Part shown: piece by piece, positions 2,698 through 50,716 of the stretch | Layout of the letters: each line of letters starts with the position of its first letter | Position numbering within the stretch: the first letter of the stretch is position 1 | Source: Candidatus Kapaibacterium sp. | Lineage (GTDB): Bacteria > Bacteroidota > Ignavibacteria > Kapaibacteriales > UBA2268 | Length of the DNA stretch: 64,000 nucleotides | Direction: 5' to 3' | NCBI GenBank assembly: GCA_023957315.1 | Contig: JAMLHE010000002.1 | Coordinates: forward strand, 263,750-327,749 | Program-made: the position numbers and the translations under genes | Notes under the pieces: generated by a model | What the model was told of the DNA's origin: nothing | The model's database searches: none | Seen by the model: the letters and a program-made list of their open reading frames with translations, nothing else

Positions 2698-4187
2698 ATG
2701 TCAGAACAACCAAAAAGAAAACATTGGGTCAATTGGGCATTATTTGGTGCCACAGTTGTTGTCGTATTCCTTGTAGGAATTTTCACTGCTCAAATCATGG
2801 AACGCCGTGCGGAAAAAGTAGCACGATTCCAAATTATTCACGAATTACCGGAATACGAGCCTCGTAACGAGGTTTGGGGCGAAAACTTCCCCAGACAATG
2901 GGAAACTTATCGCGAAACTTTGGACACAAATTTCACAAGTGCTCACGGTGGCTCATCAAAAATTGATTATCTCGAAGAATTCCCCGAACTCGTGATTCTG
3001 TGGGCTGGTTATGCCTTTTCAAAAGACTATAACCAAGGACAAGGTCATGCGAATGCTATTAATAATATCCGTAAGACTTTGCGAACAGGCGGTGTTGAAG
3101 ATTCTCCATTGCCTTCGACTTGTTGGACTTGCAAAAGTACCGACGTGCCGAGAGTCATGGCAGAAATCGGTGTTAAAGAATATTACGATAAAAAATGGAT
3201 TGAAGTTGGGCATGAATTTGTCAATCCAATTGGTTGCCAAGATTGCCACGACCCGAAAACAATGAGTTTGCGAATCACTAGACCCGCTTTGATTGAAGCA
3301 TTTGAACGTCAAGGCAAAGATATTAAGGAATTTTCGCATCAAGATATGCGCTCGCTTGTTTGCGCTCAATGCCACGTTGAATATTATTTTAAAAAACCGG
3401 GCAATTATCTCACTTTCCCATGGGACAAAGGTTTTTCGGCTGACGATATGGAAGCCTATTTCGACGAAATAGATTTTAGCGATTGGACTCATAAACTGAG
3501 TCGCGCCCCTATGCTCAAAGCACAGCACCCGGATTACGAATTATTCATGACCGGTGTTCATGCCGAAAGAGGCGTGTCATGCTCGGATTGCCATATGCCA
3601 TACAAAATGGAAGGCGGCGTTAAATTCACAGACCACCATTTAAGCAGCCCACTCAGAAACGTTGCGGCTTCGTGCCAAGTTTGTCACCGCGAAAGCGAAG
3701 CGCAGCTGATTAAAGATGTGACCTCGCGCCAAGATAAAGTATTGGAACTCAGACGTTTGGCTGAAAAGTCACTCGCAGCTGCTCATATCGAAGCTAAAAG
3801 CATCGTGGGATGCAGGTGCTACGAAGCTTAAAATGGCGCCGGTGCTCAAACTTATCCGCCACGCTCAATGGAGATGAAGTTGGGTTGCTGCTGCTAATGG
3901 CGTGGGATTCCACTCACCCGTTTGAAGCTCTCAGAGTGCTTGGCACTTCCATCCAAGCTGAACAAGCGCGCGTGCTCAAAACGCTCTTGTTCTTGTAAGA
4001 TTAAGTGTGCGCTTCTATTCCGATGCCCGATATTTCAGCAAAAGAATTGGCTCAAAAATATATCGGACTTGATATTGACGCATTGAAAAAGGATAAAATC
4101 AAGCTCTTGGAAACAGTTGTCAAAGAGTGGGATAAAGAAGCTTTGAAAAGACAAGGTACTTTGATTGATTATAAATTGAACAAATAA
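2698..4187 (+). pseudogene. nrfA: cytochrome c552 nitrite reductase NrfA; 5' 1.1 kb intact, 3' end disrupted by 2 frameshifts and 3 in-frame stops
   Basis: CWTCK active-site haem motif plus four CxxCH (CQDCH, CAQCH, CSDCH, CQVCH) in frame 1. Homology to the NrfA C-terminus (WDAGAT..IRHAQWRWD..EALRVLGTS..IPDIS..) continues through frames 2 and 3 to 4187. The annotated ORF stops at 3831. Confidence 0.7.
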
Positions 4188-10323: not shown

Positions 10324-11508
10324 TTATCTAACTGAATTAGAATCTTGCGCTTGCCGGTTGAATTCAGGGTCTGAGTCATATTTCGAATCTGCTTCTTCGG
10401 CTTCTTTTGCTTTCTCTGCTTCGCTTTTTAGTTTTGCAGCTTTTTTCTTGCGTCTTACTTCGTTGAAGTCAACAGATTCTGTCAATTTCACTCCTTCTCG
10501 GATATGACCTCTGGCTCGCAAAGTATCTTCGGCAACAATGTATCTGTTTCTGTCAGGTAAAATTCCGCGTGAAGTTTTAGGTATTTGCTGTATCGGAATA
10601 TATGCCTCTTCAAATTCCATCGGGTTTTCGGGCACCTTAATTATAAAATCTTTATTGGATTTGAGTGCGAACCATGGACCGGTTTTCGGACGTGTAAAAT
10701 CGAATACATCAAGTATCAGAACCGGTGTTCCGGTCAAGTGGATGAAATGATTATTCGAATCCAATTTGCCGCGTTGCCCCCAATTGTAGAGCCATTCAGC
10801 ATCGTCAAGAAATTGCCTTACGCATGAATGCGATGCAGCATAGCCCGGCATATCAAATTTATGGAAGGCACTTCCGGCATAACGGTGAAAATTCCATGTG
10901 AATGGCATAATCCAAGTGCTGTCTAAAGATGATTTCCGAACTAATTGTTTCCAAACTAAAGCGTATCTCCCGGGAAAAGTTGGTGTTTTTTCTTTGCCGG
11001 TATTTGCAGCAGCAAACCTCACTTGCACACCATTTTCATAACAAGCATAAGCTTGCCAACGATTAGATACCAGAATTAACTTGGGTATATCGCGAGCTCC
11101 GTGATAATATTGCGGAAAAACCGAATATGCGCACATGTCATCGAAATATTCCTTAGGGACGACAATTGTATCTCCAACTTTCACGAAGCGCCTCTCTTTT
11201 CGATTAAGCGTCAAGAATGCTTTGTTTATAGATGGGTTCTCCTTGTCTAATTTGAACTGTTCACGAATTTCACCCAAATGCTTATTGTCGCGAATCACAA
11301 TATGCTCGTACTCTATAAGCGGGTATATATCGTGTTTAGCGATTAATTCAGCTAATTCGACCGAATCTCTATGAGCTTTGTCTAATTTTTCACTAATTTC
11401 ATCTTCATATTCTTCCGATTCTCCTTTACGGCTTTCGGAACAAGAAGAAAGAATGATAACTATTGTTAAAAGAAGCACAGATTTTATTAAATTCAAACTA
11501 TTTCCCAT
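10324..11508 (-). CDS. L,D-transpeptidase (YkuD) family lipoprotein
   Basis: Lipobox ILSSC; HGARD...SHSCVR matches the L,D-transpeptidase H..SHGC(I/V)R catalytic motif; Lys/Glu-rich C-terminal tail. Confidence 0.6.
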   Translation of the reverse strand: MGNSLNLIKSVLLLTIVIILSSCSESRKGESEEYEDEISEKLDKAHRDSVELAELIAKHDIYPLIEYEHIVIRDNKHLGEIREQFKLDKENPSINKAFLTLNRKERRFVKVGDTIVVPKEYFDDMCAYSVFPQYYHGARDIPKLILVSNRWQAYACYENGVQVRFAAANTGKEKTPTFPGRYALVWKQLVRKSSLDSTWIMPFTWNFHRYAGSAFHKFDMPGYAASHSCVRQFLDDAEWLYNWGQRGKLDSNNHFIHLTGTPVLILDVFDFTRPKTGPWFALKSNKDFIIKVPENPMEFEEAYIPIQQIPKTSRGILPDRNRYIVAEDTLRARGHIREGVKLTESVDFNEVRRKKKAAKLKSEAEKAKEAEEADSKYDSDPEFNRQAQDSNSVR

Positions 11509-15398: not shown

Positions 15399-15609
15399 AC
15401 CGCATAGTATTCTGTAATAGAGAAAAAAAGCAAATACGTAAAACAAAATCCAAAAAAATGAAACATAAATATAGAAAAATGAAACATAAATCTAAAAACA
15501 TGAGACATGATTCAAAAGTACATAAACAAGATTCTAATATATGTGAAACATAAATCCAAAAAACGTAAAACATAAATCCAAAAAGTCTGAACCCAAAATA
15601 CTATGCGGC
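15399..15609. repeat. array of ~7 degenerate ~21-bp direct repeats (core GAAACATAAATCCAAAAA) bracketed by a 12-bp perfect inverted repeat
   Basis: Units cgtaaaacaaaatccaaaaaaa / tgaaacataaatatagaaaaa / tgaaacataaatctaaaaaca / tgagacatgattcaaaag / ... / tgtgaaacataaatccaaaaaac / gtaaaacataaatccaaaaag; flanks ccgcatagtatt (15402-15413) and aatactatgcgg (15596-15607). Confidence 0.7.
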
Positions 15610-19074: not shown

Positions 19075-19155
19075 GTCAACTTATTTCAGGACAAGACATG
19101 GGGCTTCTTCGCGTTTTTTGCGTTTTCTTTTGTATGCTTCATTCTGCTCTCATTA

Positions 19156-19362
19156 TCAATTATCACTTAATTTTATCAATTTAATATCTCTTGGGACACC
19201 TAATTCCCTGCATTTGATAGCAAATTCTTCAAGATTCATTGGACCATGTACTTTATCAGTATGTATTTCCACAATCCAGTAATAGTAAAGTTTGCTTTGT
19301 CTTACTAAAGTTTTTTTAACATCAAATTTTAAAGGTTGATCTTCCCCCAGTTTTGTGTACAC
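19156..19362 (-). pseudogene. possible 3' remnant of IS-interrupted gene (GTG-initiated 68-aa ORF)
   Basis: Begins inside the IS terminal repeat; no independent start signal. Confidence 0.3.
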
Positions 19363-20591
19363 AAATATAAGAGATTATTTGTTACTAAAAAATTGTTGTT
19401 CAAATTCTAGCGGAGATAAATAATTCAAACTGGAATGCATCCTATGTCTGTTATAGAACACTTCAATATACTCGAATATCATCATCTCAGCTTCACTCCT
19501 TGTTTTAAATCGTGTTTGGTAAACTAATTCCATTTTTAATGTATGGAAAAATGTTTCTGTTATTGCATTGTCATAACAATTGCCTTTTCTACTCATACTT
19601 TGCGATATATGATTATTTTCAAGCAGATTGCGTACCTCGTTGCTTGCGTATTGCACACCTCTATCTGAGTGAAAAATCAATCCTTGCTTGGGCTTCCTTT
19701 CCGTGATTGACTTTTCTATCGCAGAATGTACAAACGCTTTGCTTAATCTTGTGTCAACTCGCCAGCTGATTATCTGTCTTGTAAATATGTCAATTACAAC
19801 GACTAGATAAAGCCAGCCTTCTCGTGTCCAGATATATGTTATATCCGATGCCCATACTTTATTTGGGCTTATTGTTGTAAAATTCTGTTTTAATTGATTC
19901 TCAGCCACCGGAAGACTATGATTTGAATTGGTAGTTGCTTTAAATTTTCGCTTTACGACTGATTTTAAAGATTGCTCTCGCATCAGTCTTGCAACCTTGT
20001 TCTTACCTATCATGATGCCTTTACGACGCAATGCCTGTGTTATTCTGGGCGACCCGTAAACTTGGCGGCTCTTTTCAAATATCTCCTTTATTTCTTTATT
20101 AATTAATTTGTCTGCATTCTTTCGATTGCTTGTTTTACCTTGCTTGTATTTATAGTACCCGCTCGTTGATACTCCTATTGCCCGGCATATTCTCAATACT
20201 GCATATTCTGAGCAGTGCTTTTCCACAAAGGAGTATTTATCTTCTATTCTTTTGAAAATATGCCGAGTGCTTTTTTTAATATGTCTCGCTCCTCTTTTAA
20301 AACCCGATTCTCTCGCTTAAGCCTTGTAAGCTCTGAATCTATAGGGCTTTGGTGTCCTTTACCGGGGAATGCACCTTCAGCATCTTTCAAATACCGTTGC
20401 TTCCAGAGATGCAAGGTATTTTCGTTTATACCAAGTTCTCTTGATAATTCCGATATTCGCTTTTGTTTGCTTAATATCAGTTTTACAGTATTTATTTTAA
20501 ATTCTTTGTCGTATGTTCTTTTTACTTTTTCCATTTTTGACCTCCGTTTTTCTCAAATCTAACTAGTTTTCATCTCTTTTCCTAATGTCCA
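19354..20591 (-). mobile_element. IS3-family insertion sequence (orfA 20244..20534, orfB 19375..20226, A7G slippery site)
   Basis: OrfA HTH transposase (IS3/IS911-like) and OrfB rve/DDE integrase core on the minus strand; AAAAAAAG slippery motif near orfA 3' end (plus-strand ctttttttaa ~20264-20273); imperfect ~21-bp terminal IRs starting TG (tgtacacaaatataagagatt at ~19356 vs revcomp tggacattaggaaaagagatg at 20571-20591, ~14/21 identical). Confidence 0.65.
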
Positions 20592-20885
20592 CTCTATTGG
20601 GGGAAGGTCAGGTCGGTATTCTTCACGTAGTTTATCTTTAATTTCATAAACAGGTTTTTGAATAGCTACAATAAAATCCGAGTTGTTTCCATATTTTACT
20701 ATATCTCCGTCTATTATGTTTCCTTTTTGGGTCTTATTTAATTTAGAATAACTGTTAGGATCGCTCATTATACCATAATCATTTCCAAATATTATAAATT
20801 GCTTGCTATCACAAGAATTTACAAGTTCATCACATGAAGCGATTAGTGTAACTAATAAAATAAAAAGCAAAAAATTTAAATTCAT
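20559..20885 (-). CDS. lipoprotein, 3' end replaced by IS3 terminal sequence (truncated)
   Basis: Signal peptide + lipobox LIASC; last ~11 codons are encoded by the IS left end. Confidence 0.45.
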   Translation of the reverse strand: MNLNFLLFILLVTLIASCDELVNSCDSKQFIIFGNDYGIMSDPNSYSKLNKTQKGNIIDGDIVKYGNNSDFIVAIQKPVYEIKDKLREEYRPDLPPIEWTLGKEMKTS

Positions 20886-21016
20886 AACTACTCCGTATTA
20901 TATACTTTCTTCGTCCCGTCAGGTGTTACACCTGACGGAACAAAATGTAATCATAAAAATCATATCAATCATACAATTCATAGTTCAGACCCATCTCTCA
21001 CTCTGTTTCCCCAAAT

Positions 21017-22297
21017 CTAATACTGCATCATCTTTTTGATTGATACATGGTCAAGTGGTTTCGAGAGCATATAAAATTCATCAATTCTACCTCTGAAATA
21101 TGAGGAGCCGTCGTCGCTTGCGCCTATTACCAATGGTAGCCCGGATTTTTGCGGATTACCGGATACAATTTCTGAAATCATATTTCCATTTACATATAAA
21201 ACCATTCTCCCCTTATTTGAAACTATGGCAATATGCGTCCAAATAGCTTTTGCGGGTATTGGCGCCTTTACATGACTTTCGTAACTTTCGCCATCACACA
21301 CTCTGAAATAAAATGTATTTGTGCTGTAAATGTAGAAAACATAGCTTGCATTTGCCGGAGCTATCGGTCCCCATTTACCAAAGATATTGTTATCGGTTTT
21401 ATTAGTTTTACCCATTGAGTTATCAGGAAATATCCAGAACATTATGGTATAATCTTCGCCAATATTTGTCAAATCGCTCGGTATTGATATTTTCGACGAT
21501 GTACCATTAAAATAGACAGCACCATCTTCAACACCGTTGCGGTCTTGAGCAAATTGAATATTGTGAGGTGCGGTTTGGAGCAAATATTTCCCTTGGTCTA
21601 AAGTATGACCGTTGAATGATAGGTAGAGTTCGACATCATTTAAATCAAATTGTGTTCTGAACCTTGTTGTAAAATGCGAGACGTCGCTTTCTGTCATTGC
21701 GTCGTAAATGTCGTAGGCTACAATTCTAATATAATATTTCATCGAATCTTTAAGGTTTTCCACATGAAATTCGCTTTTGCTTATTCTATTTGCCACTTTG
21801 TATATCGGAGGATTGACCGTGTCGCAATAGACATCATATGTCAATTTATCGCCGTCAATATCTATACAACTCCAAACAATATTTGTTGTGTCGTCATAGA
21901 CCAAGGCACCACTTGCCGGAAATTCAATGATTGGCAGCTCGGGAGCATTATTTGCATCAACTTTGGCTGTTAGCTTCACGTAGGCGCGGGTTTCCTTGTC
22001 GGATTTGACACTAATACTGACATTGCCAAGGTAGTAATCTTCCTTAGTCGCGATAATTCTATATGTTCCGGGACTGGCGTTGCCCAGATAAAAATATCCT
22101 TCGCTATCAGACAGAACCGATTCTGTTGCCGGTTCCGAGGATACTAAGGCATTTTGCAGCGGTTCCAGAGTTTTGTTATCATGCACATACCCAACAATCT
22201 TGCCATCAGCAACTATCGGTGCTTCAACAACAGGCTCATCAATACACGATGTCACATATAGACAAGCCAGCAGTACGAGTGTATAAAATTTTCTCAT
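21017..22297 (-). CDS. lipoprotein with carboxypeptidase-regulatory-like, Fn3-like and LamG/concanavalin-like (Laminin_G_3) domains
   Basis: Lipobox YVTSC; CarbopepD_reg-like GKIVGYVHDN...SDSEGYFYLGNASPGTYRI; C-terminal LamG-type FNGTSSKISIP...FRGRIDEFYM; ATG at 22297 preferred. Confidence 0.55.
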   Translation of the reverse strand: MRKFYTLVLLACLYVTSCIDEPVVEAPIVADGKIVGYVHDNKTLEPLQNALVSSEPATESVLSDSEGYFYLGNASPGTYRIIATKEDYYLGNVSISVKSDKETRAYVKLTAKVDANNAPELPIIEFPASGALVYDDTTNIVWSCIDIDGDKLTYDVYCDTVNPPIYKVANRISKSEFHVENLKDSMKYYIRIVAYDIYDAMTESDVSHFTTRFRTQFDLNDVELYLSFNGHTLDQGKYLLQTAPHNIQFAQDRNGVEDGAVYFNGTSSKISIPSDLTNIGEDYTIMFWIFPDNSMGKTNKTDNNIFGKWGPIAPANASYVFYIYSTNTFYFRVCDGESYESHVKAPIPAKAIWTHIAIVSNKGRMVLYVNGNMISEIVSGNPQKSGLPLVIGASDDGSSYFRGRIDEFYMLSKPLDHVSIKKMMQY

Positions 22298-22881
22298 ATA
22301 AAATCCCGTAAAAATATGTTTGAATCCAACGTTTCTTTCAAATATAATGAATATTCTGAATTTAGACAGTTTCATGAACTCAAAATGCACTATATTTCAA
22401 AAAACAATCAGCTATCTATACACTATGACACATGAACAGCAAAAAAATCTCAGGGTGAGAAAAATATAAAAATCCCCCTGCTCGCAAGCTCGCTTTCCCC
22501 CTTTCAAAGGGGGATTAAGGGGGATTTGTATTTGGTTTTTGTCAACTTTTTTTAGGACTAAACAAAAAAAATCTAAATATTTTGTTCCTTTTTTGGGTTT
22601 GAAGTGTCATCATATATATAAAAAGTGTTTTTTTCTGTAAATTTGACAATTTCGATTGTCTATACATTTAGGGAGAATCTTTTCTCCGGAAAGTTTTTTC
22701 CGTCCCGTCTTTAACAAAACCGGAACATCTTAACCTCGAAGAGGTTACATGTTTATAGAAATGATGATTGATGTTCGGTTCGATGCGACCTCGTAGAGGT
22801 CGAATTTAAATAATTAACGTTTTGCTATAAACATATGACTCCTTCGGAGTCAAGAGGGATTCAAAGGAGCAGCTTTTTCAT

Positions 22882-22955
22882 CACCCACGGTTAAAACCGT
22901 GGGCTATGTTTGTCTTTCTCCCTCTCCTTCGGAGAATGTCGGGGTGAGGTTTCTT
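22882..22955. repeat. composite hairpin-module repeat (X: cccacggttaaaaccgtggg-ctatgtttgtc; Y: ctctccTTCGgaga..ggggtgaggtttctt), copy A
   Basis: Near-identical inverted copies of both modules at 40861..40939; Y also inside CDS at 36680..36727. Confidence 0.75.
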
Positions 22956-22965
22956 GGGTTTTCGC

Positions 22966-22997
22966 ACAAAAAAAAAGGTACGGAAGCCGTACCTTTA
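22966..22997 (-). terminator. rho-independent terminator (minus strand) after sigma/anti-sigma/DUF4252 operon
   Basis: aaaggtacgg-aag-ccgtaccttt hairpin with U9 on the minus strand. Confidence 0.65.
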
Positions 22998-23028
22998 AAT
23001 TTGAGATTTGAAAGAAGCAAAAAAAAAA

Positions 23029-23553
23029 TTACTCCAAATCTTTAATCTTGTCTGCTCCCTTGATGTTGAGCAATTTGCCGATGGTCGAAATCTGTTTGAG
23101 ATTGATTGTACCGTTCATCCAGATAATGACAGCTTCTTGTGGTCCTGCAACGGTCATCACGAAGTCGGAGATTTTTTCGCCCTGTTTTTTGACCATTACC
23201 TTGATGTTGCTTTCTTTGTCATTCATATTCATGATTGTACTAAAGCCTGCACCTGGCTGGAATTTCCGGACATCTTTGATAAATAAAAGACCTTCACCGG
23301 GCTTTTTTGATTTCCCGATGGCAAACGAAAGCACTTTAAGATTCTCGACTCCTGCCAAGGCGTTTTTGAGAGCTCCTTGGTCTTTTACATCCGACATTTC
23401 CGAAAGCATTACTGCAGGGTCGTTCAAACTAACCGTAGTGAAGCCCTCTTTGGAGCCAAATTTCTCGATTAATTTATCCAACGATTCGTTTTGAGCGTAC
23501 CCAAAAAGTGTGGCAAAGAAAAAGAAAAAAGCAATGTGTATTAATTTTGTCAT
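23029..23553 (-). CDS. DUF4252 family secreted protein
   Basis: Signal peptide; typical position downstream of ECF sigma/anti-sigma in Bacteroidota. Confidence 0.55.
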   Translation of the reverse strand: MTKLIHIAFFFFFATLFGYAQNESLDKLIEKFGSKEGFTTVSLNDPAVMLSEMSDVKDQGALKNALAGVENLKVLSFAIGKSKKPGEGLLFIKDVRKFQPGAGFSTIMNMNDKESNIKVMVKKQGEKISDFVMTVAGPQEAVIIWMNGTINLKQISTIGKLLNIKGADKIKDLE

Positions 23554-23562
23554 GAAATCCCC

Positions 23563-24099
23563 TTAATTATTATTGAAATTATTATCGTCAAAATTGACAA
23601 GTGAGAATGTTCCCAATCCCATAAGACCTTGCTCGACCATATTCAATTTGTCGAGGTCGCTTGTAGCGGCATCCATACGCTCTGCAATTATTTGCAAAGC
23701 TTTTGCCGTTTCGTAATATACTTGTTCGGGGTCGCTTTCGTTGTGATAGACATTTTCCAAATCCTTACTTTGCTGAAAAACAGTAAAGAACAAGGTAACA
23801 GCTATCAGAACGACTGCGGCGGCACTCGAATAGTACATATAGTTGCGAGATTTTACAATCTTCGAAGTTGCTTCGTAACTGTTAATCGAATTGATTAGTC
23901 GTTTTTCGAAGTCATCTCCGGGAGCAACAATTGCAGATTCGGCTTTGTAGAATCTGAACTGTGCGGCTTCAGTCATAAGTTCTTTAGGAACTTCTGACTG
24001 TTCAAAAAATTCGTTGATGACGTTCTCTTCTTCCAAAGAGCTTTCGCCGTCGTAGAATTTTACAAGCAACAGCTTGATTTCATCAATGTTATGCTTCAT
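23563..24099 (-). CDS. putative anti-sigma factor (single-pass membrane protein)
   Basis: Overlaps sigma gene by 11 bp; one TM helix (AAAVVLIAVTLFFTVF). Confidence 0.45.
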   Translation of the reverse strand: MKHNIDEIKLLLVKFYDGESSLEEENVINEFFEQSEVPKELMTEAAQFRFYKAESAIVAPGDDFEKRLINSINSYEATSKIVKSRNYMYYSSAAAVVLIAVTLFFTVFQQSKDLENVYHNESDPEQVYYETAKALQIIAERMDAATSDLDKLNMVEQGLMGLGTFSLVNFDDNNFNNN

Positions 24100-24616
24100 T
24101 GTAGTAATAATTATAATTGTTATTCAAAAATTCTCTTATTTTTTTTCTTGCTCTGGAAAGATTTACTTTCAAAGTGTTAATGTTCATGTCCATAATCTCG
24201 GCAATTTCTTGGTAGCTGAGTCCCTCGATGTCTCTAAGTTGTACAATCATCTTTAGATTCTCCGGCAATTGTTCGACTACTTTTCCTACAATTTCGACTG
24301 CATCCGCTAATTCGGCTTTTCTGAGCGGCGATATATCTTTTTCCTGCAAATTTAACTCCGTAATGTCTAACCCCGAGTGTACGGTCTGGAAATGCTTGCT
24401 TCTGAATCTGTCAATACATAAGTTTTTGGTCATAGCCATAGCAAACGCCTCCACGCTCTGTTTTTTCTCTAAAGATTCGCGGTTAATCCATAATTTCATC
24501 ATTACATCCTGGACCACGTCTTCAGCTTCGTCATGATTGTTCAACATTCGCTTAGCAAATCTGAACAACCTGTCTTTTACCGGCATAACCTTTGCCGTAA
24601 ACTCGTTTATTTCCAT
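24089..24616 (-). CDS. RNA polymerase ECF-type sigma-70 factor
   Basis: Region 2 (DVVQDVMMKLW) and region 4 HTH (LSYQEIAEIMDMNINTLKVNLSRARKKI). Confidence 0.85.
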   Translation of the reverse strand: MEINEFTAKVMPVKDRLFRFAKRMLNNHDEAEDVVQDVMMKLWINRESLEKKQSVEAFAMAMTKNLCIDRFRSKHFQTVHSGLDITELNLQEKDISPLRKAELADAVEIVGKVVEQLPENLKMIVQLRDIEGLSYQEIAEIMDMNINTLKVNLSRARKKIREFLNNNYNYYYNEA

Positions 24617-25476: not shown

Positions 25477-25483
25477 AATTTTG

Positions 25484-25558
25484 TCGGGGTGGAGGGATTC
25501 GAACCCCCGGCCCCCTGGTCCCAAACCAGGTGCGCTAACCGGACTGCGCTACACCCCG
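25484..25558 (-). tRNA. tRNA-Pro (anticodon TGG)
   Basis: Minus-strand read CGGGGTG-TA-GCGCAGTCCGGTTAGCGC-A-CCTGG-TTTGGGA-CCAGG-GGGCC-GGGGGTTCGAATCCCTC-CACCCCG-A: 7-bp acceptor stem, anticodon loop TT-TGG-GA, GTTCGAATC T-loop. Confidence 0.9.
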
Positions 25559-36159: not shown

Positions 36160-36170
36160 GGGTTGGGGAA

Positions 36171-36248
36171 TGCGTCATTCTGAGCGAAGCGAAGAATCAA
36201 GATTTATTAAAAGACATGGATTCTTCGCCTTCGTCTCAGAATGACCAG
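36171..36248. repeat. long imperfect hairpin (~25-bp arms) cgtcattctgagcgaagcgaagaatc ... gattcttcgccttcgtctcagaatgac
   Basis: Read directly; immediately downstream of TlpA-like gene; could act as terminator or repeat element. Confidence 0.6.
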
Positions 36249-36260
36249 TTGTCTGAACTA

Positions 36261-36296
36261 TGATTTGTGTGATTAGTGTGATTAGTGTGATTAGGA
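36261..36296. repeat. tandem 9-bp repeat (tgtgattag) x ~3.5
   Basis: gatttgtgtgattagtgtgattagtgtgattagg. Confidence 0.8.
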
Positions 36297-36310
36297 AGCT
36301 CTCAAATTCT

Positions 36311-36400
36311 CCATTCATCCGATGACTCGAAGTATTCAGATTAAGTGAATTGATAAAAGCTGTGGCACATCTAAGTGGGAGTCATCGGATGAATTATAAT
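36311..36400. repeat. 16-bp perfect inverted repeat (attcatccgatgactc / gagtcatcggatgaat) separated by ~55 nt
   Basis: Read directly. Confidence 0.75.
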
Positions 36401-36590
36401 TTCCCGTAGGATCTTACAATAGACGAAACCTTCGGAAGGTTAGGAAAGCATGCCTTTTCATGTCCCGTCAGTTGTTATAATTTACGGATAGGGATAAATC
36501 TGTAGTATAGTCGTTAGTTGTAACAAAGATGATACACTAACTTTGGAATAACTGACGGTACAGTAATTAGACTTCCGAATTCTTCATTCG

Positions 36591-38207
36591 TCACAACTTC
36601 ACAAACATCCGCGTCCGGCTGCCGATACGGACGTAATACACACCACGAGAGAGATGCGAAATATCAACTCTCAAATTCCCGCTCCCTGAGCCTGTCGAAG
36701 GGTGAGCGGGCGGGGTGAGGTTTCTTACGCATTCACCAAGCGTATTGAAAATGTGAATTTCAGCACCTTCATCAACCCTACGGTTAACCGTAGGGTTGAT
36801 GGTGTGGGAACTGATTTCAATATATTCCGTTGCGGGATTGGGGTGGATTATCGTGCTGATTTGCACTGCTTCGTTGATGCTTGTGGGTTTCGTGCAGATG
36901 CTGCTTGTCCTGTGAATGTTGTTCTGGAACATTGTCCAGTCGGGACCTTGCCCGGTTCCTGCTGAAATTGCGTATGCTCTGCCGTAATTACTGTGCCAAT
37001 CGGGATATTCGACAAAGCCACCAATTATGAAAACATCGAGTATTCCGTCGCCGTCAAAATCCGCTACTACCGGGGCATGGTCTATCGAAAACTCTTTGCC
37101 GATATGGTCAGCAAGGTCAAGAGTCCAAATGACTGAAGCGTCAATGCCCCTAAGTGCGATTACTTGTCCGCCGGTAGTGCCGAAAATGACATCCGGCAAT
37201 CCGTCATTGTCTATATCTGATAGCGCTGCTCCACGAAATGATTGTTCGATATTGGGAATATCATATTCCCAAAGTACTGAGCCGTCGCCTTTTAGGGCAT
37301 AGTAGCGGTAAAAGCTCGAAAAGACTAATTCGCAATTTCCATCGCCGTCCAAATCGCCCACAACAACAGGCGAACCGATATATGAAATCGCCTTGAAACG
37401 CCATTTCAATGTGCCGTCTGCGGAATTGAGTGCAAAGAGATTGCCGGCATAATCGCCTATTACTAAATCATCTATTCCATCGCTGTCGAGGTCAACAACT
37501 GCGGTTCCGTGATAAACAACATCTTCCAAGTCGAATGTCCAGATTAATTGCTGGTCGTAGCCACGATAAGCATAAACTTTGCTTTGGTTGTCAGTTGTAT
37601 CAAAATTCCACGAGGCTACTACGAAATCTAATTTTCCGTCGCCGTCAAGGTCAACAATTGTCGGAGCAGTCTGAATCCATGAGTTAGTGTCCACTTTTAA
37701 GTCCCACTTTTTGATGCCATCGCTTGCGTTCATACATATTACATATCCACCGAATTGTCCGTGCAAAATTTCCAATTTTCCATCGCCATCAATATCTGCT
37801 ATTGTAGGCGGTGAATCGCTTCCACGTGTGAGAGTTTGCCATTTTACTGCTCCTGTTGCTCCGTCGAAACAATATGTGTAGGGATTGCACGAACTTGCGA
37901 CGATAACGTCGAGCAAGCCATCGCCGTCCACGTCGTAAATGAGTGGCGCCGTGTCGTTGCATCCCTCCTGCCAACCGGATGTATTGTACTTCCAGAGCAA
38001 TGTGCCATCGTCTAAATTGAGGGCATAAACCATGCTATCGTTGCGATAACAGCCGAAAACCACTTCGTATTTTCCGTCATGGTCAATGTCTGCGAGTGCG
38101 GACTGACCGTACGAATTATCGTTCAGGTCGTACCACCACTTAATTTCAGGTACTTGTGCAACACATTGGATTGCAACCAATGTAAAAATAAGAATCAAAG
38201 TTTTCAT
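36591..38207 (-). CDS. FG-GAP/VCBS beta-propeller repeat protein with T9SS C-terminal sorting domain
   Basis: Eight D-x-D-x-D-G-x-x-D repeats (DIDHDGKYEVVFG, VDGDGLLDVIV, DIDGDGKLEIL, DLDGDGKLDFVV ...); C-terminal IFNTLGECV...ISHLSRGVYYVRIGSRTRMFVKL. Confidence 0.75.
   Translation of the reverse strand: MKTLILIFTLVAIQCVAQVPEIKWWYDLNDNSYGQSALADIDHDGKYEVVFGCYRNDSMVYALNLDDGTLLWKYNTSGWQEGCNDTAPLIYDVDGDGLLDVIVASSCNPYTYCFDGATGAVKWQTLTRGSDSPPTIADIDGDGKLEILHGQFGGYVICMNASDGIKKWDLKVDTNSWIQTAPTIVDLDGDGKLDFVVASWNFDTTDNQSKVYAYRGYDQQLIWTFDLEDVVYHGTAVVDLDSDGIDDLVIGDYAGNLFALNSADGTLKWRFKAISYIGSPVVVGDLDGDGNCELVFSSFYRYYALKGDGSVLWEYDIPNIEQSFRGAALSDIDNDGLPDVIFGTTGGQVIALRGIDASVIWTLDLADHIGKEFSIDHAPVVADFDGDGILDVFIIGGFVEYPDWHSNYGRAYAISAGTGQGPDWTMFQNNIHRTSSICTKPTSINEAVQISTIIHPNPATEYIEISSHTINPTVNRRVDEGAEIHIFNTLGECVRNLTPPAHPSTGSGSGNLRVDISHLSRGVYYVRIGSRTRMFVKL
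36770..36801. repeat. perfect 32-bp palindrome inside the T9SS-CTD coding sequence (encodes INPTVNRRVD)
   Basis: catcaaccctacggttaaccgtagggttgatg; centre GTTAAC. Confidence 0.85.
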
Positions 38208-40695: not shown

Positions 40696-40860
40696 ACGCT
40701 AAAAATAAATTAAAAAAGTTCCCAAATGATAAACGGACAACAGTTTTTTTTAGTTAGTTTTTCTTATTCCCCCTCTTTCAAGAGGGTGTTACGAAATATT
40801 TTTAGGGCGTGCTAATTCTATCTAGCCGCAAAGGACACAAAGAGTTGAAATTGGTAAGAA

Positions 40861-40939
40861 GACAAACATAGCCCACGAATTTTGATGGTGGGTTAAGAAG
40901 GAAACCTCACCCCAACCTCTCCGAAGGAGAGGGAGAAAG
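40861..40939. repeat. composite hairpin-module repeat, copy B (rcX-rcY)
   Basis: gacaaacatagcccac..ggtggg + ggaaacctcaccccaacctctccgaaggagagggagaaag = reverse complements of modules X and Y of copy A. Confidence 0.75.
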
Positions 40940-41063
40940 AAAAATTGAAAAAAATAAAAAATTTGAAATTTTATTTGGAAATGACAAAAGTTTTTTATTT
41001 TGGGATATTGAATTTTACATTTTTGTAAATTGTTGTTAAATAAGGAGTAATTTATAATGAGTA

Positions 41064-42810: not shown

Positions 42811-44238
42811 ATGATTTCGTATATTTTAAATATAATATGGCTTGTCCTAATATTGAATTCAATTTTGTATTCTCAAACCGAATGGGAGCAAGTGCATCCT
42901 TCTACTTATGGTACAGCTGCAAAATTTAATACTGTAAGATGTTTAGACAGTTTAAATTGTGTGTGTTTGGTATGGAATGGTACAGTATGTTGCGAAGGTG
43001 TTCTAAAATCCACAGATGGTGGCAAAACATGGAGTGAATTATATTACGAAAAAATTACATATGATGAAGAAGGTAATTTGATTTGGCCACAACCCAGATA
43101 CATGAATTCAGTTTCATATAAAACAGTAGAAAATATCCTAATTTCACGTAGCCATGGGATGATTTTCAGGAGTAAAAATGGCGGTGAATCCTTTGATACC
43201 GTTCGAGTTGTAGTACCAGTCGATGGAAAATATCCAAGCAGTTCAGAATTAAAAAATATCCACATGTTCAGTAATTCAAAAGGGGCTGTTGTATCAACAC
43301 CAAATATTTATATTACTAATGATTATTGGGACTCCTTTGAAATGATTGAAATATCACATCCCGATGTACCTGATGATTATATAATTAAAGCATTAGATAT
43401 TCATTTTTTTGATAAAGATAAATTTACAATTTATTTCTTTGCCAATAAAGAAATTTCACCTAATAATTTCCATTTTTTATTCAAAGGATTCCTGACAACT
43501 ACGGATAATGGCAAAACATGGCATATGCAAGATATTTTAAATGATTTTCAGGCAAGAAATGTTTACATTAATTCATTGTTTTCTCTAAATCCTATGATTG
43601 GATGGGCTGTCGGTTATGTTGTTTATGATACAGACAATGGGGGTAGATTAAGACACGGACTTGTTTATAAAACTTATAACGGAGGTTATACATGGGATTT
43701 AATTCATGTAGATGAAACTGAACCAAAATTTGGTTTATGGGACATTGCTTTTTATGATGAACTAAACGGAATAACAGTAGGTAAATACGGGAAGATTTTA
43801 CGTACAACAGACGGAGGTTATAAATGGTTCTCCGATGTTCAATTGAGTGCCGAACAAGAATCTTCTCGACTCACTCAGGAAATTACTTTTGCCGGGCAAA
43901 ATCCAATTGTATGTGCTTGGCAAGATGGTATTGTTCGTGGCACATACACACCATCTTCTGTAAAAGAAAGCGCAGAAGCAGGGAGCGGGCTGTCCGTCTT
44001 TCCCAATCCGGCAAGCGAATATATAGAAATAACCATAGCTATCAACCCTACGGTTAACCGTGGAGTTGATGAAATTGCTGACATCAAAATCTTCAATACT
44101 CTGGGTGAATGTGTTGAAGAAATCCCCCTTAATCCCCCTTTGCCAAAGAGGGAAACAAGAATTGATGTTTCGCATCTTCCTCGTGGTGTGTATTATGTTC
44201 GTATTGGCAGCCGGACGCAGATGTTTGTGAAGATGTGA
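42811..44238 (+). CDS. BNR/Asp-box repeat (Ycf48/sortilin-like beta-propeller) protein with T9SS C-terminal sorting domain
   Basis: Asp-box repeats STDGGKTW, SKNGGESF, TTDNGKTW, KTYNGGYTW, RTTDGGYKW; C-terminal VFPNPASEYIEI...IFNTLGECV...VSHLPRGVYYVRIGSRTQMFVKM. Confidence 0.7.
   Translation: MISYILNIIWLVLILNSILYSQTEWEQVHPSTYGTAAKFNTVRCLDSLNCVCLVWNGTVCCEGVLKSTDGGKTWSELYYEKITYDEEGNLIWPQPRYMNSVSYKTVENILISRSHGMIFRSKNGGESFDTVRVVVPVDGKYPSSSELKNIHMFSNSKGAVVSTPNIYITNDYWDSFEMIEISHPDVPDDYIIKALDIHFFDKDKFTIYFFANKEISPNNFHFLFKGFLTTTDNGKTWHMQDILNDFQARNVYINSLFSLNPMIGWAVGYVVYDTDNGGRLRHGLVYKTYNGGYTWDLIHVDETEPKFGLWDIAFYDELNGITVGKYGKILRTTDGGYKWFSDVQLSAEQESSRLTQEITFAGQNPIVCAWQDGIVRGTYTPSSVKESAEAGSGLSVFPNPASEYIEITIAINPTVNRGVDEIADIKIFNTLGECVEEIPLNPPLPKRETRIDVSHLPRGVYYVRIGSRTQMFVKM
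44041..44070. repeat. imperfect copy of the 30-bp palindrome inside paralogous CTD coding sequence (encodes INPTVNRGVD)
   Basis: atcaaccctacggttaaccgtggagttgat. Confidence 0.8.
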
Positions 44239-44295
44239 TTATGTTTTCGGACAGAACGCTGTTCTGTCCCTACAAAATATGATAATCCTGTTCAA

Positions 44296-44333
44296 GACAA
44301 AAAAAAATCCCCGCTTCCGAAGGAGCAGGGATT
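44296..44333 (-). terminator. rho-independent terminator of sdhCAB operon (minus strand)
   Basis: Minus-strand ccctgctcc-ttcg-gaagcgggg hairpin followed by U9. Confidence 0.65.
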
Positions 44334-48050: not shown

Positions 48051-50450
48051 TTACATCCCAAAAACGAAGTTCACCCAATAATTTCTTTCGGCGGCAGGGA
48101 AAAATTCCGGTCCGATGGCGCCCGATGCATAGTACAAATTCGTCAGATTGTTCACCACGGCATGAATTTTCATTTCTTCGAAAAATGGCAATTGCTTGAA
48201 AGTGTAAATCAGGCTTGCATCCAGCACTGTATATGCATCAAAGTTGTTATCTGCGTAATATCCACCTCCGAGATGACTTCTGATTCGCTCGTCAGTGGTC
48301 AGCATATCTCCGAAATTGTCCGTTTTATAAGTGCCGACATGCTTTAGGGCTACACCGAAGTACAAATCTTTGGTGCTGATGCCTACTCGTAAATTCGCCA
48401 TAAAATCGGGGAAACCGGCAATATTATTATCCGCAAGCGATACGAGATGACCCTGGCGAGTTGAGAAATTGTATTCGATAATTTTATTTTGGCTATAAGT
48501 TGCGTTGCCACTGATTCTCAAATCGAATAAATCCGAAACGTTGAAGATTTTCGTAGCCTGAAGCTCAATCCCATAGTGGCGGGTTTTTGGTGCATTGCCA
48601 TCAATCGGCGAGCCGAACAAATCGGTTTGCCCGCTTTTGACAAGCTCATCAGCGTATTCCATCCAATAGAATCCCGCATTTACGCTGAAATCTGTAGTCA
48701 AGTATCCCCAACCAAGCTCGAGATTGAGCATCTTTTCGGGTTTGACGAGTGCTTTGCTGAAGTCGTAAAGCCGAGTGCCATCTGAAGTAGTATCAAATGC
48801 AAATAGAGGTTTAGCACCCCAAAAAGCATCACTTGCAGCATAGAGATTCTTCATCCGCGGCTCGCGAGAAGTGTGTGCAAGTGAAATGTATGTGTTCATT
48901 TCATCAGTGACGTTGTAGTTAACGCCGATTCGCGGATTGAAGAAAACGTAATTAACATCAAAAAGTCTTTCGCCATTGCCCACTATAGTGCCGTCAGTAG
49001 TCGAATATTCAGTGAAAACATTGCCTGCTTTTTCGTTTTCGATTCCATAAGATTGATAAACGATTTGTGCATCCAAATTCAGTGCTATTCTTTCGGTCAG
49101 AAATAATTTCTCATTTGCAAATACGGAAAAGATATTGCGAATTCCATCATAATTGTAAAATTTGAAACCGGGGTCGAAATTCTCGGGCAAATTTTCTGCA
49201 AAATTAATCTTACCCCAATGATTGGAGCGGTGCATTCTTATTTCCATTCCACTTGTGAAAATGCCGTTTCCGTGATTCCAAACCAGACGCGGAATCCATC
49301 CGCCGTATTTATTGCCAACAAAAGCGCGTATTATCGGATTTGTCGGGTCATTGGCATCAGGATAGCCATTTTGCTCATTCAAACGGAATGACGAGGCATC
49401 TGTCCAGCCTGTGCCGTCATAATCAAAATATCCTTGACCTGTTTTGAAAAAAAGTGCTGATTTCAGCTCAAGATTCTCGGAAATGTGCCAATCATTCAGC
49501 AATTCAATCTGTGGTTGCGAAAATTGCTCTACTTCTTGATTTCGGCGAACTGTCACCCAATCTACTTCCGTTCCGTTTTCGCGGTCGTAAGACCAATAAT
49601 TGTAATTAGCTCTGCGTTTGTCGGCATCTTTTACATATGCTTTGGGCAAGCCCGTATAAGCCAAGCCGTCATCTTGCGAACCTGTAATAAAATTTATTTG
49701 CGTTGTCAGATTATCGTCAAATCGTGCGACGCCGAATTGGTAACTGTTCAAAGTTGCCCAAGATTGGTCGCGGTAACCGAATGAATTAATGCGATTTATA
49801 CGAGTATAAAAAGCATATTTATTATCAATTAATCCACTCGAAGCCGAAAGCCCGAATTTCGAGCCATATTGCCCGGCATTATATAGCGATGAGGCGCTTT
49901 CCTGAAAGCCAATTCCGGTGCTGAATTCGACAGACCTTTCACGAGCGAAATTCTTGGTGGTCATGATAATTGAACCACCAATTGCAGCAGCACCATAACT
50001 GCCAATTCCGGCTCCGCGTTGGACTTGGATGCTTTCGAGCCCCGAAGCCAAATCAGTCATGTTAATCCAATAGAAATTGTGGTCTTCGGGGTCGTTCTGA
50101 GGAATGCCATTAATGACAATAGAAATTCGTCGCTGGTCGAATCCGCGAAGTGTAAGATTGGTATAGCCGATAAAATTTCCACTTTCGGAGTATGCCAAAA
50201 TTGACGGCGTCTCGCTCAGGATTTTCGGCAAATCGTTTACTGTGTGGCGCTGGGCAATTTCCGAAACAGTGATTTCAGAAAAGGGTACAGGTGATTCTCG
50301 CTCTTGGGCGCGAGATGTGGTAACGGTTAGACTCGGTATCTTATATACACGAGTGGAATCTACGTTCAACTCTTCGGAATGAACGGTGAAAGCACCAATA
50401 AAAATCAGTGCAAATGCGATTAAGAAAATATTTCTCATGGAAAACTCCAA
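48051..50450 (-). CDS. TonB-dependent outer-membrane receptor (probable thiamine/thiamine-precursor transporter)
   Basis: Signal peptide, plug domain, 22-strand barrel, C-terminal ...NFVFGM; TPP riboswitch in 5' leader. Confidence 0.8.
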   Translation of the reverse strand: MEFSMRNIFLIAFALIFIGAFTVHSEELNVDSTRVYKIPSLTVTTSRAQERESPVPFSEITVSEIAQRHTVNDLPKILSETPSILAYSESGNFIGYTNLTLRGFDQRRISIVINGIPQNDPEDHNFYWINMTDLASGLESIQVQRGAGIGSYGAAAIGGSIIMTTKNFARERSVEFSTGIGFQESASSLYNAGQYGSKFGLSASSGLIDNKYAFYTRINRINSFGYRDQSWATLNSYQFGVARFDDNLTTQINFITGSQDDGLAYTGLPKAYVKDADKRRANYNYWSYDRENGTEVDWVTVRRNQEVEQFSQPQIELLNDWHISENLELKSALFFKTGQGYFDYDGTGWTDASSFRLNEQNGYPDANDPTNPIIRAFVGNKYGGWIPRLVWNHGNGIFTSGMEIRMHRSNHWGKINFAENLPENFDPGFKFYNYDGIRNIFSVFANEKLFLTERIALNLDAQIVYQSYGIENEKAGNVFTEYSTTDGTIVGNGERLFDVNYVFFNPRIGVNYNVTDEMNTYISLAHTSREPRMKNLYAASDAFWGAKPLFAFDTTSDGTRLYDFSKALVKPEKMLNLELGWGYLTTDFSVNAGFYWMEYADELVKSGQTDLFGSPIDGNAPKTRHYGIELQATKIFNVSDLFDLRISGNATYSQNKIIEYNFSTRQGHLVSLADNNIAGFPDFMANLRVGISTKDLYFGVALKHVGTYKTDNFGDMLTTDERIRSHLGGGYYADNNFDAYTVLDASLIYTFKQLPFFEEMKIHAVVNNLTNLYYASGAIGPEFFPAAERNYWVNFVFGM

Positions 50451-50497: not shown

Positions 50498-50598
50498 GGG
50501 CTGTCCTTGCGGCAACGCGTTTCCCTCCGCCGGTATTACCCGGATCAGGTTCAAGGAGACTCTCTCAGCCATACCTATTTTGGTATAGCACCTCCAAC
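50498..50598 (-). promoter_or_regulatory. TPP (THI-box) riboswitch
   Basis: Minus-strand RNA ..GGUGCUAUACC..GCUGAGAG..CCUUGAACCUGAUCCGGGUAAUACCGGCGGAGGGAAACG.. matches TPP aptamer consensus (GGUGC / CUGAGA / ACCUGAUCyGGnUAAUrCCrGCGnAGGGA). Confidence 0.85.
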
Positions 50599-50716
50599 GG
50601 TCTTTAATTCTTTTGCCCAAACGAAGCAAAAATGAATTTATTGTTAATATCGAATTCTAACTCAAACTACGCAAATGTCGCATTGTACGTTAATAATAAT
50701 TTACAAATAGCAAATA

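Follow-up and report, generated by a model that had tools for sequence, protein, structure and literature searches.

The 64-kb stretch of Candidatus Kapaibacterium sp. DNA analysed here (hereafter the window; G+C 39%) contains an intergenic region at positions 22391-23028, located between a DUF4252 gene and a gene for a lipoprotein with CarboxypepD_reg and Laminin_G_3 domains, both on the minus strand. As noted in a preliminary description of this DNA, the region has no open reading frame (ORF) of 60 codons or more. It probably represents a non-coding spacer in which a mosaic of small dispersed palindromic DNA repeats has accumulated, similar to the clusters of repetitive extragenic palindromes (REPs) in bacterial interspersed mosaic elements (BIMEs) of Escherichia coli. 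Its repeats constitute independent modules: each recurs in other genomes, with unrelated surroundings and in either orientation, and copies are even located in-frame within genes. In this reading, the region is neither one structured-RNA gene nor a dead gene. Loci from other sequence sources are given as L-numbers. The features of the locus, following the minus strand, are:

24089-24616, minus strand: extracytoplasmic function (ECF) sigma factor gene, the first of the operon on the DUF4252 side.
23563-24099, minus strand: putative anti-sigma factor gene of the same operon.
23029-23553, minus strand: DUF4252 gene, the last of the operon and the upstream neighbour of the region.
22967-23024, minus strand: predicted intrinsic terminator of the ECF sigma/anti-sigma/DUF4252 operon (terminator scan).
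22909-22955, plus strand: module Y, a decayed intrastrand-triplex motif of the BoxC/PIT/TMECO type (sequence match and literature).
22884-22916, plus strand: module X, a hairpin CCCACGGT-TAAA-ACCGTGGG with a conserved tail CTATGTTTGTCTT, one of a family of 11.
22728-22855, no strand assigned: inverted doublet of two "hairpin + ATGTTTATAG" units (arms 22728-22761 and 22822-22855) with a REPIN-like layout.
22645-22725, no strand assigned: three short hairpins (22645-22660, 22672-22687 and 22687-22702) and a fragment TTCCGTCCCGTCTTTAACAA, the latter read by eye.
22541-22561, plus strand: short conserved motif GTCAAC-N3-TTTTAGGACTAA, where homology to the 87%-identical relative L122 begins.
22468-22536, minus strand: extended module Z (Z-ext), a 69-nt repeat with copies in L069 and L122 (fold predicted).
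22417-22465, minus strand: promoter-like conserved motif CCTGAGATTTTTT-N4-6-TTCATGTGTCATAGTRTATA of approximately 45 nt, upstream of the lipoprotein gene.
22298-22416, minus strand: proximal upstream region and 5' leader of gene 21017-22297 (93% identity to L122 across 22558-22298).
21017-22297, minus strand: CarboxypepD_reg and Laminin_G_3 lipoprotein gene, the downstream neighbour of the region.

The start of the lipoprotein gene was placed at the ATG at 22297, since the predicted lipoprotein signal peptide MRKFYTLVLLACLYVTSC begins there; the true spacer would therefore be 22298-23028, about 730 nt. The gene product matches, at 100% identity, a protein of a metagenome-assembled genome (MAG) listed at NCBI as Candidatus Kapabacteria, and the C-terminal domains (CTDs) of the type IX secretion system (T9SS) encoded in the window likewise match Kapabacteria proteins.

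All six hairpins listed in the preliminary description were found at the positions given there, and three more were identified (gacaatTTCGattgtc at 22645, ggagaaTCTTttctcc at 22672 and cggaaaGTTTtttccg at 22687). The region thus holds nine perfect hairpins with a stem of at least 6 bp, eight of which contain at least three G-C pairs. When hairpins were counted as perfect stems of at least 6 bp with a loop of 3-8 nt and at least three G-C pairs, 500 dinucleotide-preserving shuffles of the region gave a mean of 0.28 (sd 0.54, maximum 3) compared to the eight in the real sequence, and the other 640-bp stretches of the window had two or fewer each. The hairpin density is far above chance and unique within the window. 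The loops had been described as UUCG- or GNRA-like; two c(UUCG)g loops are present on the plus strand, and GNRA loops are absent.

Modules X and Y had been reported to recur in inverted form at a second intergenic locus, and this was confirmed at 40859-40944 on the minus strand, with two features recognized by sequence comparison:

40859-40890, minus strand: X2, a variant of module X.
40901-40944, minus strand: Y copy 2.

Within the window, GTGGGCTATGTTTGTCTT has exactly two occurrences, at 22899 (plus strand) and 40859 (minus strand), and so does CTCTCCTTCGGAGA, at 22922 (plus strand) and 40918 (minus strand); 22909-22953 matches 40944-40901 at 91%. X and Y follow each other in opposite order at the two loci. 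X is composed of a hairpin CCCACGGTT..AACCGTGGG and a tail CTATGTTT; on the minus strand the tag AAACATAG precedes the hairpin. The 11 copies stem from six sequence sources (the window, L001, L113, L124, L125 and L134) and lie in non-orthologous contexts; in several relatives X begins, on the opposite strand, directly at a CTD gene's stop codon. Two subfamilies differ in the inner stem (GGTT/AACC vs GAAT/ATTC), the stem being kept by double changes from G-C to A-U. Across the family, 84% of the cells are paired and the covariation score is 0.25, compared to 0.15 in shuffles (reached by 1 of 500), though this covariation may come from just one or two events. Several modules co-occur in L069 and L001, and these were considered as orthologous loci; this was rejected, as protein comparisons revealed unrelated neighbour genes, and the modules were therefore placed there independently.

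Module Y carries the three-arm layout of an intrastrand-triplex motif. In copy 1, the C-arm CCCTCTCC at 22920-22927 is followed by the loop TTCG and by a first G-arm, GGAGAatg, decayed from GGAGAGGG by three mismatches and keeping only 5-6 bp; the second G-arm GGGGTGAGG at 22941-22949 comes 5-6 nt after the first. Copy 2 is less decayed (arms CCTCACC, CCTCTCC and GGAGAGG), with the core CCTCTCC-gaa-GGAGAGG. Scanning one genome per species with the pattern CTCTCCTTCGGAGA-N3-6-GGGTGAGG returned at least 120 loci in Flavobacterium, Pedobacter, Mucilaginibacter, Prevotella, Capnocytophaga, Ignavibacteria and Kapaibacterium. The 125 matches listed, when aligned, showed unrelated flanks around a core CC-CTCTCC-TTCG-GGAGAGGG-YNG-GGGTGAGG, in which the TTCG loop was imposed by the search pattern. 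The resulting 37-nt Bacteroidota consensus has matches in 4394 of 5426 complete E. coli genomes (median of four places per genome, 80-95% identity over at least 80% of the length), and the best places listed were all unannotated.

BoxC, later called PIT (potential intrastrand triplex), is said to be a motif of E. coli and cyanobacteria, reportedly from work by Bachellier in the 1990s and by Hoyne and Maher in 2000. The same sequences were renamed TMECO in E. coli (e.g. CCCTCTCCCTGTGGGAGAGGGCCGGGGTGAGGGC) by Holder et al. (2015, PMC4666352), and the Y core is essentially the same element as these published sequences. The published consensus, CCCTCNCCC N3-6 GGGNGAGGG N3 GGGNGAGGG, is fitted by the consensus of the 125 Bacteroidota copies listed, with stems one base shorter. 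TMECO sequences form a stable triplex in vitro as single-stranded DNA, which was not detected in vivo; they have no known function, and they mark intergenic sites that vary more than controls among E. coli strains (PMC4666352). Bacteroidota go unmentioned in that paper (PMC4666352).

Y is also encountered within a larger element. In the Microscillaceae MAG Prado074 and in Arcicella, the motif forms the core of a miniature inverted-repeat transposable element (MITE) of approximately 110 nt, which is bounded by terminal inverted repeats GGGTGCATTTCAAATTTAC and by what appear to be target-site duplications of 8 bp; at least 30 copies are present among the fetched loci:

Y-cored MITE loci in Prado074: L006, L011, L012, L020, L038-L041, L047, L057, L059, L065, L079, L080, L085, L088, L090, L092, L094, L095, L098, L104-L106, L109, L112, L114, L118 and L120.
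Y-cored MITE locus in Arcicella: L044.

Module Z has a core (22496-22524) in which the triplex-type motif is perfect, TCCCCCTT-tca-AAGGGGGA-tt-AAGGGGGA, and it is the only perfect homopurine motif of this type in the region; when the window was scanned for the triplex layout, only Z and Y copy 2 came out as both homopurine and G/C-rich. The motif is defined by a C-arm of 8-9 nt, a loop of 3-6 nt and a complementary G-arm, followed after a linker of about 3 nt by a repeated second G-arm as homopurine third strand. Z (perfectly) and Y copy 2 have the C-arm, loop and complementary G-arm, Y copy 1 has them in part, and a second G-arm is present in Z (after tt) and in Y (after 5-6 nt). Judged by this arm layout, Y and Z are assigned to the BoxC/PIT class as triplex-type modules. 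The 20-mer AATCCCCCTTAATCCCCCTT of the Z core gave at least 120 metagenome matches with unrelated flanks, and the complementary G-arm was found in 108 of the 125 matches listed. Two further copies of Z had been proposed within the window. The reverse complement inside a coding sequence was confirmed, as 22505-22527 is a perfect 23-nt reverse-complement match to 44120-44142 within gene 42811-44238, whereas the proposed copy at 40767-40787 turned out to belong to a different subfamily without the second G-arm:

40762-40791, plus strand: Z-like motif of another subfamily (CCCCCTCTTTCAAGAGGG; TCTTATTCCCCCTCTTTCAAGAGGGTGTTA), second G-arm lost; 93% identical to its true relative, L001 8395-8424, which retains that arm.

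Z-ext has three copies in L069, an 8-kb piece of the HGW-Ignavibacteriae-1 MAG, and one in L122 (87-98% identity), with partial copies in L134 and L136. On the minus strand it is predicted to fold into a branched stem followed by UUUUUAUAUUUUU (dG -29.7 kcal/mol), a terminator-like succession of stem and TTTTTATATTTTT. It is found about 40 nt past the stop codon of the DnaJ gene in L122 and, for one copy in L069, 14 nt past that of a multicopper oxidase gene. Because of this predicted fold and these placements, Z-ext looks like a portable terminator, although the two other L069 copies are located between divergent genes.

The modules are not confined to spacers. Two CTD genes of the window, 36591-38207 and 42811-44238, are 84-89% identical over their last 260 nt except for one loop, and this loop is occupied by modules:

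44120-44155, plus strand: Z-type module, in-frame in loop 2 of the T9SS CTD of gene 42811-44238, reading EEIPLNPPLPKRET.
36672-36726, minus strand: Y-like C-arm (CCTCACCCC) and hairpin CCCGCTC..GAGCGGG, in-frame in CTD loop 2 of gene 36591-38207, reading RNLTPPAHPSTGSGSGN.

When six CTDs of this subfamily ("FNTLGECV ... RIDVSHL.RGVYYVRIG" type) were aligned, two loop slots with alternative modules became apparent, embedded in flanking DNA of 84-93% identity:

Slot-bearing CTDs: window 36591-36854 (minus strand) and 43975-44238 (plus strand); L001 10046-10309; L017 4088-4351; L113 1664-1927; L138 6561-6797.

Slot 1 holds a palindrome coding INPTVNRRVD or one coding PSEGFEPSEG. Slot 2 holds a Z-type module, the CCCGCTC..GAGCGGG module or one of two GTAG-tagged perfect palindromes. 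In L001, the CCCGCTC..GAGCGGG module also has an intergenic copy (10569-10597), which lies 300 nt past its gene on the downstream side. The loops of other window CTDs, and of those in L126, are ordinary. More module clusters lie downstream of the two window genes, at 36160-36590 and 44240-44330, including a CGTC-tagged palindrome (CGTCATTCTGAGCGAAGCGAAGAATC...), ATTCATCCGATGACTC...GAGTCATCGGATGAAT and a GTAG-tagged hairpin GGACAGAACGCTGTTCTGTCC-CTAC at 44249-44274, and these modules are common to L001, L017 and L113 at 80-100%. Furthermore, four annotated proteins of 53-62 residues (P0004-P0007, from NCBI Kapabacteria and other MAGs) correspond to only the last two-thirds of a "GECV" CTD and may be gene fragments or orphan CTD cassettes. 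Exact-protein look-ups of P0004 and of the DUF4252 ORF returned no record.

In-frame occupation extends to housekeeping genes. Among the matches listed, 43 of 125 for Y and 25 of 125 for the Z core lie inside open frames of at least 150 codons. From the translated flanks, read by eye, the hosts include LeuRS, ValRS-like, phosphoglycerate mutase, HemC-like, GatB-like, PEP carboxylase-like and Der-like proteins as well as CTD loops, and the motifs are translated as LTPxLSEGEG / SLSFGEGRGEA / PSPSERAGVRL or as IPLNPPLxKGE:

In-frame motif loci: L009, L050, L108, L097, L051, L032, L022, L084, L027 and L089 (genome scan); L200, L256 and L165 (metagenome scan).
LeuRS genes with DUF559-like inserts: L009 about 3090-3545; L050 about 270; L108 about 480-610.

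In these three LeuRS genes, a DUF559-like nuclease-type domain (TEAE..LW...KIRRQH, assigned by regular expression) is inserted after NWIGKSVG..F and bracketed by motif-coded peptides, with two inverted Y motifs flanking the insert in L009. DUF559 nuclease genes were also considered as general companions of Y and were rejected as such, since only 2 of the 125 Y matches listed adjoin one (L009 and L108) and the window has none; a broader signature scan added L050, and all three cases are the LeuRS inserts. A phrase search of the literature returned no earlier description of in-frame occupation of proteins by such motifs.

The spacer is framed by a predicted terminator of canonical form and by a conserved upstream region. 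The putative operon terminator is a stem-loop AAAGGTACGG-CTT-CCGTACCTTT at 22996-22974 on the minus strand, with a 10-bp stem followed by T9 (dG -15.6, z -6.8), 32 nt past the DUF4252 stop codon. It combines a stem-loop, a U-run and a position downstream on the same strand, and a stem with UUUUUAUAUUUUU is also predicted for Z-ext. The terminator block is orthologous (93%) to L126 just after its DUF4252 stop codon. At the other end, the motif CCTGAGATTTTTT-N4-6-TTCATGTGTCATAGTRTATA is found upstream of lipoprotein orthologues in L122, L124, L126, L128, L132 and L136, and it also precedes unrelated genes (WD40/CTD) in L069 and L126:

CCTGAGATTTTTT-N4-6-TTCATGTGTCATAGTRTATA sites: L122 5815-5860; L124 5865-5895; L126 4430-4458 and 5805-5850; L069 5947-5990.

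A sigma-70-type reading of the conserved TTCATGTGTCATAG motif was rejected, and the motif is called only promoter-like, because its spacing does not fit sigma-70. A further motif, GTCAAC-N3-TTT(T/C)AGGAC(T)AA, adjoins triplex-type motifs or terminators on either side:

GTCAAC..AGGAC sites: window 22541-22561 and 19075-19095; L001 8438-8457; L069 6009-6030 and 6152-6173; L122 5716-5737; L126 4363-4385.

The possibility that it marks the end of an IS3-family element was rejected, as it lies approximately 250 nt from the likely end of the insertion sequence, and no inverted partner was seen on reading the far side. The insertion sequence in question (about 19100-20990; orfA 20559-20885, transposase core 19375-20226, minus strand) separates the lipoprotein gene from a SurA-like gene, and in L122 only 73 nt lie between these two genes.

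The interval between the DUF4252 and Laminin_G_3 genes is 356 nt in L132, 468 nt in L136 and about 730 nt in the window. In L134, L135 and L137 it contains a 207-residue ORF, and in L125-L127 (including HGW-Ignavibacteriae-1) it is occupied by a WD40 gene that encodes a T9SS CTD. The lipoprotein gene has its closest relative (87%) in L122, where DnaJ is the upstream neighbour and the 93% identity to the window extends from exactly 22558 as far as the start codon. The window spacer has the operon terminator (93%, L126), X, part of Z-ext and CCTGAGATTTTTT-N4-6-TTCATGTGTCATAGTRTATA in common with relatives. As relatives share the terminator and the upstream motif and differ in length, genes and the hairpin chain, the spacer is a plastic zone, with a minimum of a terminator and the upstream region of the next gene, to which lineages have added different modules or genes.

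The central hairpin chain (22560-22880) holds six of the region's hairpins in 320 nt. The arms of its inverted doublet are 76% complementary, and their small hairpins differ by three compensatory pair changes. Between the arms lies a central hairpin cgacctcGTAgaggtcg (22786-22802); alternatively, the arms can form one long stem. The fragment TTCCGTCCCGTCTTTAACAA at 22698-22725 resembles, by eye, half of a CGTC-tagged palindrome, with about 20 of 24 bases alike; this palindrome occurs at 20913-20938 as well as in L069 and L001. The chain was found in none of the syntenic relatives compared.

Elsewhere in the window, tandem and near-tandem 21-nt repeats (AAATCCAAAAAAATGAAACAT and variants) are located at 15446-15584, just downstream of the CTD gene ending at 15615. 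A tRNA-Pro(TGG) gene lies at 25483-25558 (minus strand), and a thiamine pyrophosphate (TPP) riboswitch (68.6 bits) at 50505-50605 (minus strand) is upstream of a 799-residue ORF (48051-50450).

Along the minus strand, the mosaic would be composed of the intrinsic terminator of the ECF sigma/anti-sigma/DUF4252 operon, a decayed Y, an X hairpin repeat with its AAACATAG tag, a lineage-specific 320-nt stretch (an inverted doublet of tagged hairpins, small hairpins and repeat fragments), the GTCAAC..AGGAC motif, Z-ext as a second terminator look-alike, and finally the promoter-like motif and the lipoprotein leader. We infer that the modules would act at the DNA level as selfish or neutral sequences, spreading or being regenerated via a single-strand hairpin form, and that their presence would favour rearrangements of the spacer. 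No enzyme that mobilises the triplex motifs is known to us. The tagged hairpins would, by analogy, spread as REPs do with REP-associated tyrosine transposases (RAYTs) (PMC3733652). Any effect at the RNA level would be secondary, with transcribed stem-loops at most terminating or stabilising neighbouring mRNAs.

Several observations weigh against a repeat mosaic. Dispersal of X, Y and Z-ext was observed across genomes, and the source genome was covered over 64 kb only. For the chain 22560-22880, a search of about 260 kb (the window and roughly 200 kb of relatives) matched only chance 12-13-mers and gave no second copy, and a degenerate consensus of the doublet gave 0 matches in JGI metagenomes; to count the chain as a repeat is to go by its internal inverted duplication and by resemblance only. 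The AAACAT tag that would link X to the doublet is weakly supported: seven tagged hairpins were found compared to about one expected, and four of the seven are X copies. An "AAACAT tag + hairpin" superfamily was consequently left as a weak lead, since the enrichment is carried mostly by X itself. Among the window ORFs scanned there is no RAYT/IS200-like, TnpB or DUF559 gene (the latter by signature scan). Finally, the terminator and promoter roles given here are predictions, and E. coli PIT elements showed no promoter or terminator activity in published tests (PMC4666352).

The stem-loops had initially been taken to suggest either a transcribed structured RNA or REP/MITE-like elements. The latter is supported, as X, Y, Z and Z-ext are each a dispersed family whose members, in genomes both related and distant, have unrelated surroundings. 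It is improbable that the region encodes a structured non-coding RNA with the stem-loops as functional domains, be it a small RNA or a long leader that regulates the lipoprotein gene in cis. The predicted folding is indeed strong (z -3.9 and -4.8), but these values belong to the two strands, which fold equally well, as expected of DNA palindromes. Similarly, the two c(UUCG)g loops on the plus strand and the compensatory changes seen among X copies and across the pair of small doublet hairpins would fit an RNA, whereas the modules occur singly elsewhere in either orientation and the chain is absent from all relatives sharing one or both flanking genes. On the minus strand, terminator-like elements bracket the chain, yet no promoter-like site lies ahead of it. 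An Rfam scan, proposed earlier as a check, revealed no family at or near the gathering threshold in the region; the best permissive match, Phe_leader (33.5 bits vs a threshold of 55), is the terminator-like stem of Z-ext, and the whole window gave only the tRNA-Pro and the TPP riboswitch.

That the elements are decayed 3' ends of T9SS cargo genes was the other suggestion made earlier, partly from a peptide-like remnant obtained by translating Y at both loci. Locus 1 does read RNLTPTFSEGEGE, and locus 2 gives both halves only with a frame shift. We regard it as very unlikely that a cargo gene once lay between the DUF4252 and lipoprotein genes and left its CTD as the modules. HGW-Ignavibacteriae-1 and two related assemblies, although more distant, do carry a WD40 and Por_Secre_tail gene in exactly this interval, and in L126 the spacers around this gene sum to about 760 nt, close to the 730 nt of the window. 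However, the L126 CTD has no modules, and in L132 and L136 the same two genes flank a spacer of only 356-468 nt that lacks such a gene. A permissive tblastn search with the WD40-CTD protein and both window CTDs gave a best E value of 0.013, for the Z-coded octapeptide only, and blastn detected only modules; the conserved CTD blocks, 84-93% identical between paralogues, are absent. Z- and Y-like sequences are present in the CTD loops of two window genes, but the Y and Z cores are widespread outside CTDs, Y also in E. coli, which has no T9SS. Since the copies in coding sequences are in-frame module insertions in CTD loops, the intergenic modules are not decayed CTD ends. The least probable alternative is that about 22575-22967 is a single composite non-autonomous transposon (a MITE) inserted once. 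This would account for the absence of the stretch from relatives and for its long internal inverted repeat (a potential 34-bp stem), and the Microscillaceae MAG provides a bona fide MITE with Y as its core, terminal inverted repeats and apparent 8-bp target duplications. By eye, however, no terminal inverted repeats or target-site duplication exist at the 22575-22967 borders, and none at the doublet borders; no second copy was found in the window, the relatives or, for the doublet, the JGI metagenomes; and the X and Y inside it are separately mobile families.

In annotation, neither "RNA gene" nor "pseudogene" would be a suitable label, and the region would best be entered as a repeat mosaic with a terminator and an upstream region. 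The BoxC/PIT/TMECO motif is, in nearly the same sequence, extended to Bacteroidota, Ignavibacteria and Kapabacteria, and its presence in a spacer that varies in length and gene content among close relatives fits the published link between the motif and local genome instability. It is conceivable, if unlikely, that the modules belong to a cross-phylum class of 25-70-nt palindromic or triplex-type elements that insert or are copied both between genes and in-frame into tolerant protein loops. If so, this would point to an undescribed and still active mechanism of insertion or templated patching, possibly nuclease-driven, and the elements would be a source of loop diversity in the sorting domains of secreted proteins. 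The in-frame slots, should they hold up, would offer a concrete handle on how such elements spread.

When compared to known systems, the region resembles REP/BIME clusters (Di Nocera et al. 2013, PMC3733652) in its imperfect palindromes of 20-40 nt in alternating orientation, located after stop codons or between genes, and in the one-sided short tag, the inverted doublets (REPIN-like) and the occasional copies inside genes. It differs in that its hairpins are tagged with AAACAT(A/G)(G/T) (AAACATAG, AAACATGT or AAACATAT) and not with GTAG or CGTC, and in the lack of a RAYT among the ORFs scanned. The only piece in the region that resembles such a tag is the CCGTCCCGTC fragment at 22698-22707, and true GTAG-tagged repeats are found outside it, at 44249-44274 and in related CTD loops. 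Rickettsia palindromic elements are likewise both intergenic and in-frame in genes that stay open; they are about 100-150 bp in length and confined to Rickettsia, compared to 25-70 bp and a distribution across phyla for the modules described here. The pneumococcal BOX elements are also built from short, separately recurring boxes with stem-loop potential near gene ends. They are not known to have any sequence relation to the present modules, whose order is not fixed (X-Y vs Y-X).

With BoxC/PIT/TMECO, Y shares the three arms in nearly the same sequence (CCCTCTCC, loop, GGAGAGGG, 3-nt linker, GGGTGAGG), whereas Z shares the layout of C-arm, G-arm and repeated G-arm only and differs in sequence. 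Both are, as in E. coli, dispersed, mostly intergenic, in either orientation, often paired and located in a rearrangement-prone spacer. In contrast, the window copies of Y are decayed, the stem of the Bacteroidota consensus measures 8 nt and its loop is TTCG, and Z-ext has an extra outer arm by which the triplex-type core becomes a branched, terminator-like stem. Dense REP/BIME-like clusters and BoxC/PIT motifs are thus known already; the near-identity of the Y core across phyla and the in-frame occupation of proteins go beyond the textbook picture.

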